A stretch of 9,870 nt of DNA from a virus. Its lineage: Duplodnaviria; Heunggongvirae; Uroviricota; Caudoviricetes. How positions within the stretch are numbered: the first letter of the stretch is position 1; each line of letters opens with the position of its first letter. This document shows positions 4,435 to 5,175 of this stretch, piece by piece. The stretch lies in IMG/VR virus record IMGVR_UViG_2713896780_000030, one strand, 5' to 3'. A model generated the notes under the pieces. The model saw only the letters and a list, made by a program, of their open reading frames with translations, had not been told where the DNA came from and made no database searches. The translations under genes were made by a program, and so were the position numbers.

Positions 4435-5175
4435 CTAGCCACCCTGAGTACAAAGTTGCTTAATTCGTGCAATCACCTCATCTCTGTACTTCTGGTGTCC
4501 GCGCATAGCCCTTGGATGGGCAATTCTGAAACAGATTGTATTACCTGTTTTGAACTCCCACAGCTTCCCCGGAATGACTGAAGAAGTCTCATAGCCGCCT
4601 AGCTCAGTAAGCACCTGTTTTATGATGTAGTCTGTTCTCCGGGCTCCAGATGCAAAGATGATGAAATCAGGCTCAAGGTGTTTAATTTGTACCGCCAGTA
4701 GCTTCAGCGAGGCTAATATGACTTCCTGCACTTCATTTTGAGGGCGATTGAGAGGGGTCAGTCCGTCGTAATCCCACGCCAGTAGATTGGCATACACGAT
4801 TGCCTGGGGAAGAATATTAAGCTCCCGGGCCAGCCTGAAATGATATTGCGTGAAGCGGCTACGTGATTTGAGGTTGGCGGTGCCATAATTTTGTACCGGA
4901 AGATGTTTCCTGTAACGATCTACAGCTTCTTCAACCACTTGCCCGATGGTGACGTCAGGTATAAGTCCCAACACCCGTGATATCGTATTCTTACCATTCA
5001 GCGTATTCCAGCCTGCGGTTTCACGTCCAACCAGCATGATTTTTATCGGTGAATGCCAGTATTCTTCAAACGGCACGGGTAAAAAGACGCCTGAGTATTT
5101 ATCCTCATTCAGGTTAAATGACTGGGCGTTAACTTCCTGCAATATCCGTTTGTACGCGTCTAATAGCTTTTCCAT
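4435..5175 (-). CDS. UDG-superfamily-like protein (putative uracil-DNA glycosylase), 246 aa
   Basis: ATG at 5175 with AGGA about 8 nt upstream. IKIMLVGRETAGW resembles UDG motif A (hydrophobic strand plus G-x-x-x-G) and FRIAHPRAMRG resembles motif B (HP), with spacing like family 4/5 UDGs. Assignment is by eye; no Fe-S cysteine cluster is apparent. Confidence 0.5.
   Translation of the reverse strand: MEKLLDAYKRILQEVNAQSFNLNEDKYSGVFLPVPFEEYWHSPIKIMLVGRETAGWNTLNGKNTISRVLGLIPDVTIGQVVEEAVDRYRKHLPVQNYGTANLKSRSRFTQYHFRLARELNILPQAIVYANLLAWDYDGLTPLNRPQNEVQEVILASLKLLAVQIKHLEPDFIIFASGARRTDYIIKQVLTELGGYETSSVIPGKLWEFKTGNTICFRIAHPRAMRGHQKYRDEVIARIKQLCTQGG

Follow-up and report, generated by a model that had tools for sequence, protein, structure and literature searches.

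What does the gene at positions 4435 to 5175 of the viral record IMGVR_UViG_2713896780_000030 (Caudoviricetes; 9,870 nucleotides, hereafter the window) encode, and does it serve the DNA polymerase gene beside which it lies? The window carries the hallmarks of a pipolin (piPolB, the gene of a primer-independent polymerase; integrase remnants; a tRNA-derived repeat) and shares 100% identity with E. coli O145 chromosomes; there, the neighbours of the gene are annotated as an 'Arm DNA-binding' integrase, which is partial, and as a 'DNA-directed DNA polymerase'. An initial annotation, made from the sequence alone, had proposed a divergent member of the uracil-DNA glycosylase (UDG) superfamily travelling with the polymerase. 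It is well supported by our analysis that the gene belongs to a very divergent UDG-superfamily family, free of an iron-sulphur (Fe-S) cluster and closest, among characterised enzymes, to the family-4 UDGs; the analysis further revealed that the gene is not functionally tied to piPolB and is no polymerase accessory. The gene and its motifs are laid out in the window as follows.

4435..5175, minus strand: coding sequence of the 246-residue UDG-superfamily-like protein (WP_022581686.1 in E. coli O145, annotated 'hypothetical protein')
5183..5186, minus strand: AGGA ribosome-binding site, 7 nt 5' of the ATG, read from the sequence
5002..5040, minus strand: motif A after strand beta1, K45-IMLVGRETAGWNT (residues 46-58), from hhalign and column conservation
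4861..4989, minus strand: family-specific insertion of ~43 residues (63-105), comprising a pair of helices and a loop of lower confidence, seen as an hhalign gap
4852..4854, minus strand: F108, the aromatic residue predicted to stack on the base, which opens the helix after motif A, from conservation and analogy of position
4768..4788, minus strand: end of strand beta2, N130-LLAWDY136, with N130 the predicted base-reading Asn, from hhalign
4495..4533, minus strand: motif B, C215-FRIAHPRAMRGH227, with H220-P221 the counterpart of the HPS motif, from hhalign

The open reading frame (ORF) and the motif strings of the initial annotation, IMLVGRETAGW (residues 46-56) and AHPRAMRG (residues 219-226), are real, and the motifs do not reflect chance, as G50, E52, W56, N130, H220 and P221 are retained in 72-74 of 74 relatives sharing 22-64% identity with the query. 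The spacing of the motifs, described as typical of family 4/5, is not: 170 residues separate G50 from H220, compared with 116 in the Thermotoga maritima UDG and 125 in E. coli Ung, mostly because of the insertion of ~43 residues at positions 63-105.

Searched singly, the protein matched nothing in Pfam (even at E<=10), NCBIfam or PADLOC at permissive thresholds, and no PDB entry was matched by phmmer with the single sequence or by a 32-sequence profile (A1), the weak PDB profile matches to an RNA helicase and a virginiamycin lyase (E about 1-2) being dismissed as noise. Homologues were numerous: a database clustered at 90% yielded 186 matches, all of them devoid of Pfam domains and a few bearing the UniRef or NCBI name 'uracil-DNA glycosylase-like', and an exhaustive profile search reached 459 clusters at 50% identity. 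The alignment and profile of the 74 diverse relatives (A2) had a mean column identity of 23%, and 37 of these wider-family members matched PF03167 weakly (best E 6.7e-6; threshold E<=1). Comparison of the predicted protein model (pLDDT down to 60-66 in blocks 51-60 and 91-100) revealed the UDG alpha/beta fold with its central parallel sheet, Foldseek against the PDB was concordant, and the best structural and profile matches were family-4 UDGs (T. maritima TM0511/1l9g, Thermus thermophilus 1ui0 and Sulfolobus tokodaii 4zby). Motif A after beta1, the Asn after beta2 and the His-bearing motif B after the last core strand all lie at the expected secondary-structure positions. UDG-fold hits were thus obtained both by structure and, weakly, by profile, and at the superfamily level the UDG reading holds, although as a finding it is not new, having already been published for pipolins.

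For family assignment, the exact sequences of the T. maritima, T. thermophilus and S. tokodaii family-4 UDGs, UdgX, Ung and Mug were taken from the PDB search output and that of Brig1 from the supplement of the Brig1 paper. Aligned by hhalign, A2 scored 91% with S. tokodaii and 66% with T. maritima as single family-4 sequences and 93% (E 4e-7) with a four-sequence family-4 alignment, while the other comparisons gave 0.8% (Ung), 0.8% (UdgX), 0.6% (Mug) and 0.2% (Brig1). The family-4 alignment paired G50 with the Gly of GEGPG, N130 with the Asn of 'CNVVKCRP' and H220 with the His of 'FHPS', and left residues ~63-105 unaligned as an insertion; distant relatives carry HPS itself at motif B, and the model together with hhalign places F108 at a position analogous to the Phe of the family-4 PF(V)G. 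Membership of family 1 was rejected (no GQDPY or HPSPLS, and the low score with E. coli Ung), as was that of family 2 (MUG/TDG), which has no motif-B His whereas H220 is present here, GINPG also being absent, and that of the Brig1 family, which scored lowest of all and is marked by a GLNPG motif A, in contrast to GRETAGW, and by a pocket with Y121 and E147. The residues reported for Brig3 (N50-P51-S52...E55, D127 as catalytic acid and N225 as wedge; PMC13160076) differ from R51-E52-T53, in a comparison made by description only.

The pipolin gene has been labelled 'type-4 UDG' (PMC7385651). Judged by sequence, that label is a nearest-neighbour call and not a statement of membership, and it needs correcting because two defining features of family 4 fail. 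The [4Fe-4S] cysteines of family-4 UDGs have no counterpart, as the initial annotation had rightly remarked: the protein has only two Cys (C215 and C241) and its close homologues a median of one, Cys occurs in >=15% of sequences at just two query-matched alignment columns with no conserved four-Cys set in the wider family, and the family-4 Cys positions align by hhalign with non-Cys residues. Motif A was also correctly called non-canonical, reading G-R-E-T-A-G-W in place of G-E-(A/G)-P-G. The position of the family-4 motif-A Glu is R/Q/K across the glycosylase-like family, and the invariant acid, E52, follows one residue later, at the third motif-A position, which is the catalytic Asp in the family-1 GQDPY and Asn in MUG and SMUG; E52 fell on D64 of E. 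coli Ung in a non-significant alignment. With family-4 UDGs the protein shares the alpha/beta fold, the aligned Asn after beta2 and motif-B His-Pro, and a similar 'LLxAQIExLKPD' helix-strand region, but it differs from them in the insertion after motif A, in an N-terminal helix in place of the Cys-rich segment, in an identity of just 13-15%, and in being encoded by a mesophilic gene on a mobile element. E. coli Ung is alike in the acid at the third motif-A position (G-Q-D-P-Y compared with G-R-E-T-A), the Asn after beta2 and the H-P of motif B.

Across the 74 relatives, G50 is conserved in all, E52, W56, R217, H220 and P221 in 73 each, N130 in 72, and F108 as Phe in 68 and Tyr in two. In UDGs of families 1 and 4, the conserved positions are the water-activating, stacking, base-reading and leaving-group-stabilising sites. 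Pairwise ratios of non-synonymous to synonymous substitution (dN/dS) against orthologues at 68-87% identity were 0.09-0.18. A dead or purely structural fold appears unlikely because the active-site residues are near-invariant despite the 23% column identity and because dN/dS is so low, and an active glycosylase is, on this conservation, much more likely; the non-catalytic role suggested by the initial annotation therefore finds little favour. In the predicted mechanism, a pyrimidine would be flipped from the DNA into the enzyme pocket, where F108 would stack on the flipped base and N130 would read its Watson-Crick edge, with E52 activating the attacking water and H220 of motif B stabilising the O2 oxyanion of the leaving base. 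Given the Asn and His pair, uracil or a 5-substituted uracil is the predicted substrate; nothing in the sequence seems to bar 5-substituents, because the fifth motif-A position (the Tyr gate of UNG) is variable in the glycosylase-like family (A/R/K/G).

To assess the association with piPolB, 5,426 complete E. coli genomes were surveyed: 532 had the gene (521 of these at >=80% of its length), and piPolB was present in 295 by megablast or 303 in a search mode for divergent DNA, so that at least 229 of the 532 carriers (~43%) lack piPolB. Among 56 loci in other species, only the copies with >=93% identity had piPolB no more than 10 kb away. A polymerase-less pipolin remnant (locus L071; NZ_CP101197.1, 19671-24086) between leuZ and yecA retains an intact glycosylase-like gene with a truncated integrase, an AAA ATPase and an HNH endonuclease, the last two possibly forming a Septu-like pair. 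It is because of the carriers without polymerase and the intact copy in this remnant that the gene is considered not tied to piPolB. The proposal that the glycosylase travels with the polymerase therefore stands only in so far as the gene is published in pipolins; in at least those 229 carriers it is independent of piPolB. When viral contigs were scanned with A1, all copies recovered were at >=96% identity, and we interpret them as this very E. coli island, called as a provirus; the search of BFVD yielded only remote phage UDGs and UDG-like polymerase domains, with no close viral relatives.

Outside pipolins, the neighbours of the gene include defence functions. In Proteus, the gene heads an island of Mrr and a type I restriction-modification (R-M) system, and Marinobacter-type loci have the order two GmrSD-type genes, small partner, glycosylase-like gene and ADP-ribosylglycohydrolase. 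An ADP-ribosylglycohydrolase (PF03747, E 1.7e-68) adjoins the homologue in seven loci (L035, L039, L040, L041, L043, L044 and L046), often with a WYL/WCX regulator, and the same adjacency has been reported for Brig1 and Brig3 (PMC11078745; PMC13160076). Other immediate or near neighbours are PDC-S37/Hhe, HEC-04, PDC-S26, a PLD nuclease, MkoA and WYL regulators. The small partner, an acidic protein of ~110 residues (isoelectric point 4.3-5.1, no Pfam match), accompanies the gene in 16 loci of marine gamma-proteobacterial relatives (~55% identity; L027-L044, L061) and is absent from the enterobacterial copies. It lies 5' of the gene in 15 of the 16 loci, with start/stop overlap or a gap of <=14 nt (for example L031 9660-10001 and L035 9657-10004), and just downstream in L030. 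The partner could be an inhibitor or immunity protein (perhaps a Ugi-like DNA mimic) or a specificity partner; its identification as BapA was rejected, BapA being ASCH-type and >250 residues long.

On this evidence the protein is proposed to be a catalytically competent, monofunctional UDG-superfamily glycosylase with an accessory, conflict-type role on mobile elements, a reading that we hold with evenly balanced confidence, housekeeping repair of the element being less likely. In such a conflict role, the enzyme would make abasic sites in incoming DNA containing uracil or modified uracil, possibly as a Ugi-insensitive back-up UDG or with a Brig2-like activity. The role is favoured over repair of piPolB products because the gene occurs independently of piPolB and survives in remnants without the polymerase, because it has defence genes as neighbours, and because the Brig glycosylases provide a precedent. 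Brig1, Brig2 and Brig3 are likewise UDG-superfamily proteins of ~245-260 residues acting as single-gene anti-phage effectors on defence islands or mobile elements, and Brig1 and Brig3 share with the pipolin family the recurrent ADP-ribosylglycohydrolase neighbour; motif A is, however, of N-P type in Brig1 (GLNPG) and Brig3 (N50-P51-S52, PMC13160076) and E-T in the pipolin family, which also keeps the motif-B His that Brig1 lacks. It has been speculated that pipolin 'DNA glycosylases' may act in defence (PMC11551731). Several observations weigh against a conflict role: the enterobacterial pipolins carry the gene in their conserved att-site module and not in the variable cargo (PMC11551731), which fits element maintenance; all the uracil-type residues of repair UDGs are kept at the active site, the motif-B His included, which Brig1 is without; about half of the contexts have ordinary chromosomal neighbours (seryl-tRNA synthetase, SCO1, transaldolase); the case from defence neighbours is a count over ~15 contexts, with no formal statistic of enrichment; and no experimental work on the protein or its family, whether enzymology or phage assay, was found in the searchable literature. 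The repair and defence readings would meet if the enzyme were a Ugi-insensitive uracil glycosylase attacking phages that contain uracil or encode Ugi. Non-family-1 UDGs resist Ugi, and family-4 enzymes remove uracil from single-stranded as well as double-stranded DNA. A wider version of the conflict proposal, which we put forward only tentatively, is that of a new and widespread anti-phage base-excision family, without Fe-S cluster or sequence relation to Brig1 and numbering at least 459 clusters at 50% identity, that would make abasic sites in invading DNA carrying uracil or hypermodified thymine or uracil and would be represented in marine gamma-proteobacteria by the cassette with the acidic partner and, often, the ADP-ribosylglycohydrolase. 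Since piPolB reportedly bypasses abasic sites, it could in that case make the pipolin tolerant of collateral damage.

Dedicated repair of the element, in which uracil would be removed from piPolB-copied pipolin DNA much as viral UDGs act for herpes- and poxvirus genomes, with abasic bypass by piPolB tolerating the intermediates, is rather doubtful in our estimation. It accords with the conserved uracil-type catalytic residues, with the location of the gene in the att-proximal core beside the integrase gene IntSXT in intact pipolins of several genera, and with its published annotation as a UDG among replication-associated pipolin genes (PMC5695915, PMC7385651), but it has to contend with the E. 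coli carriers and the remnant that lack the polymerase, with the lack of piPolB within 10 kb of most other-genus relatives, with hosts that already encode Ung and Mug, and with the incongruence of the published UDG and piPolB phylogenies (cophenetic correlation 0.38; PMC7385651). UDG folds physically or genetically coupled to the replicative polymerase of a mobile or viral genome are known in vaccinia D4 and in the UDG-like domains of phage family-A polymerases, and a non-catalytic fold serving here as a DNA-binding or processivity subunit (as D4 does for E9), or as a sensor of lesions or modified bases, was considered. We regard it as improbable, since a structural role would not require four catalytic positions to be near-invariant in so divergent a family, and since the gene is without piPolB in most contexts, its adjacency to the polymerase in the window arising from a deletion. 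Least probable is the canonical family-4 (UDGa) enzyme of the E. coli pipolin literature, for which the shared fold and aligned motifs speak but which is contradicted on both the Fe-S cluster and motif A.

The presence of a 'UDG' in pipolins has been published already (2017, 2020 and 2024) and is here a rediscovery. What is new is that the family-4 label fails, leaving an uncharacterised and sizeable branch of the UDG superfamily that is missed by Pfam, NCBIfam and PADLOC; that the gene is not a polymerase accessory, given the proportion of E. coli carriers without piPolB; and that outside pipolins it lies near genes for type IV restriction enzymes, R-M systems and ADP-ribosylglycohydrolase, neighbours that resemble those of the Brig glycosylases. 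A defence role for the pipolin gene is plausible and, if true, would place a defence family in about 10% of complete E. coli genomes and would explain the retention of the gene in pipolin remnants.

The initial annotation had placed the gene downstream of the polymerase. This is so in the window but not in general, the adjacency resulting from a 5.8-kb deletion and an integrase fragment on the opposite strand lying between the two genes. The pipolin features around the deletion are as follows.

4091-4142, plus strand: 3' fragment of tRNA-Leu(taa), the att repeat (52 nt) at the tRNA-proximal pipolin end, matching at 96% the 3' portion of the complete leuZ in the intact pipolin L008
5226..5729, plus strand: N-terminal remnant of an IntSXT-type integrase, ~169 residues (PF13356, Arm-DNA-bind_3; annotated partial; end set by the blastn junction)
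5644..8199, minus strand: piPolB gene, 3'-truncated, an 851-codon ORF, from blastn against an intact pipolin

By blastn against L008, window segments 4193-5729 and 5729-9062 are joined over the deletion. The ORF containing the integrase remnant runs across this junction (5226-5804, plus strand), the full-length integrase having 410 residues in L008 and L072, and the last 28 codons of the piPolB ORF are antisense of the integrase remnant. The intact piPolB gene is 2,601 nt long (L072), and the polymerase of the window, short by this comparison of roughly its last 43 native residues, may be defective. Intact pipolins have the order tRNA-Gly, tRNA-Cys, tRNA-Leu(taa), 245 nt, the UDG-like gene and IntSXT, then two hypothetical genes, DUF2787, further genes, piPolB, additional genes with a second integrase among them, and a type I R-M system; the UDG-like gene is thus the terminal gene of intact E. 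coli pipolins. The window corresponds to a core-deleted pipolin variant next to a co-integrated element, of the type described in PMC11551731.

Some minor observations were made. Exactly 50 N occupy window positions 4144-4193 after the tRNA fragment; they represent a gap of assembly or scaffolding where the tRNA-Leu att sequence is repeated, and not real bases, because the identical O145 reference reads just 'cca', the 3' end of the tRNA, there, and they give rise to spurious X-containing ORFs at 4092-4472 and 4116-4310. A promoter and terminator scan near the glycosylase-like gene found nothing beyond shuffled expectation. Just after the tRNA fragment, 175 nt past the gene's stop codon, lies a hairpin rich in GC (ccacc-tccg-ggtgg) with seven T behind it (4239-4259, plus strand); it looks like a tRNA operon terminator carried within the att repeat, and is absent from the consensus-scan listing. 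Directly upstream of piPolB, a 212-residue ORF (8249-8887, minus strand) without a Pfam or PADLOC match is kept with piPolB in intact pipolins, at 86-94% identity in L008 and L025.

In other bacteria, GmrSD-type (DUF262/DUF1524) type IV restriction genes lie directly 5' of the partner, glycosylase and ADP-ribosylglycohydrolase cassette (L035 5260-7017; an 851-residue ORF, the cluster representative, at L061 1973-4525), together resembling an island aimed at modified DNA. The 851-residue neighbour, found in Marinobacter-type loci, has the same length as the piPolB ORF of the window and was considered as a polymerase, which was rejected, as it is a GmrSD_N protein. In Pectobacterium (L017, L019 and L020), a conserved pair of an RNA ligase (PF09414) and an HD/AAA_33 kinase-like protein lies 5' of the homologue and looks like an RNA repair or defence-like module. 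Finally, window positions 1-3984 belong to a separate integrative element, in tandem co-integration at the same tRNA-Leu and separated from the pipolin by the 52-nt tRNA fragment, which encodes a 333-residue 'phage integrase', helix-turn-helix regulators and DUF4754, DUF4761 and DUF2511 proteins.
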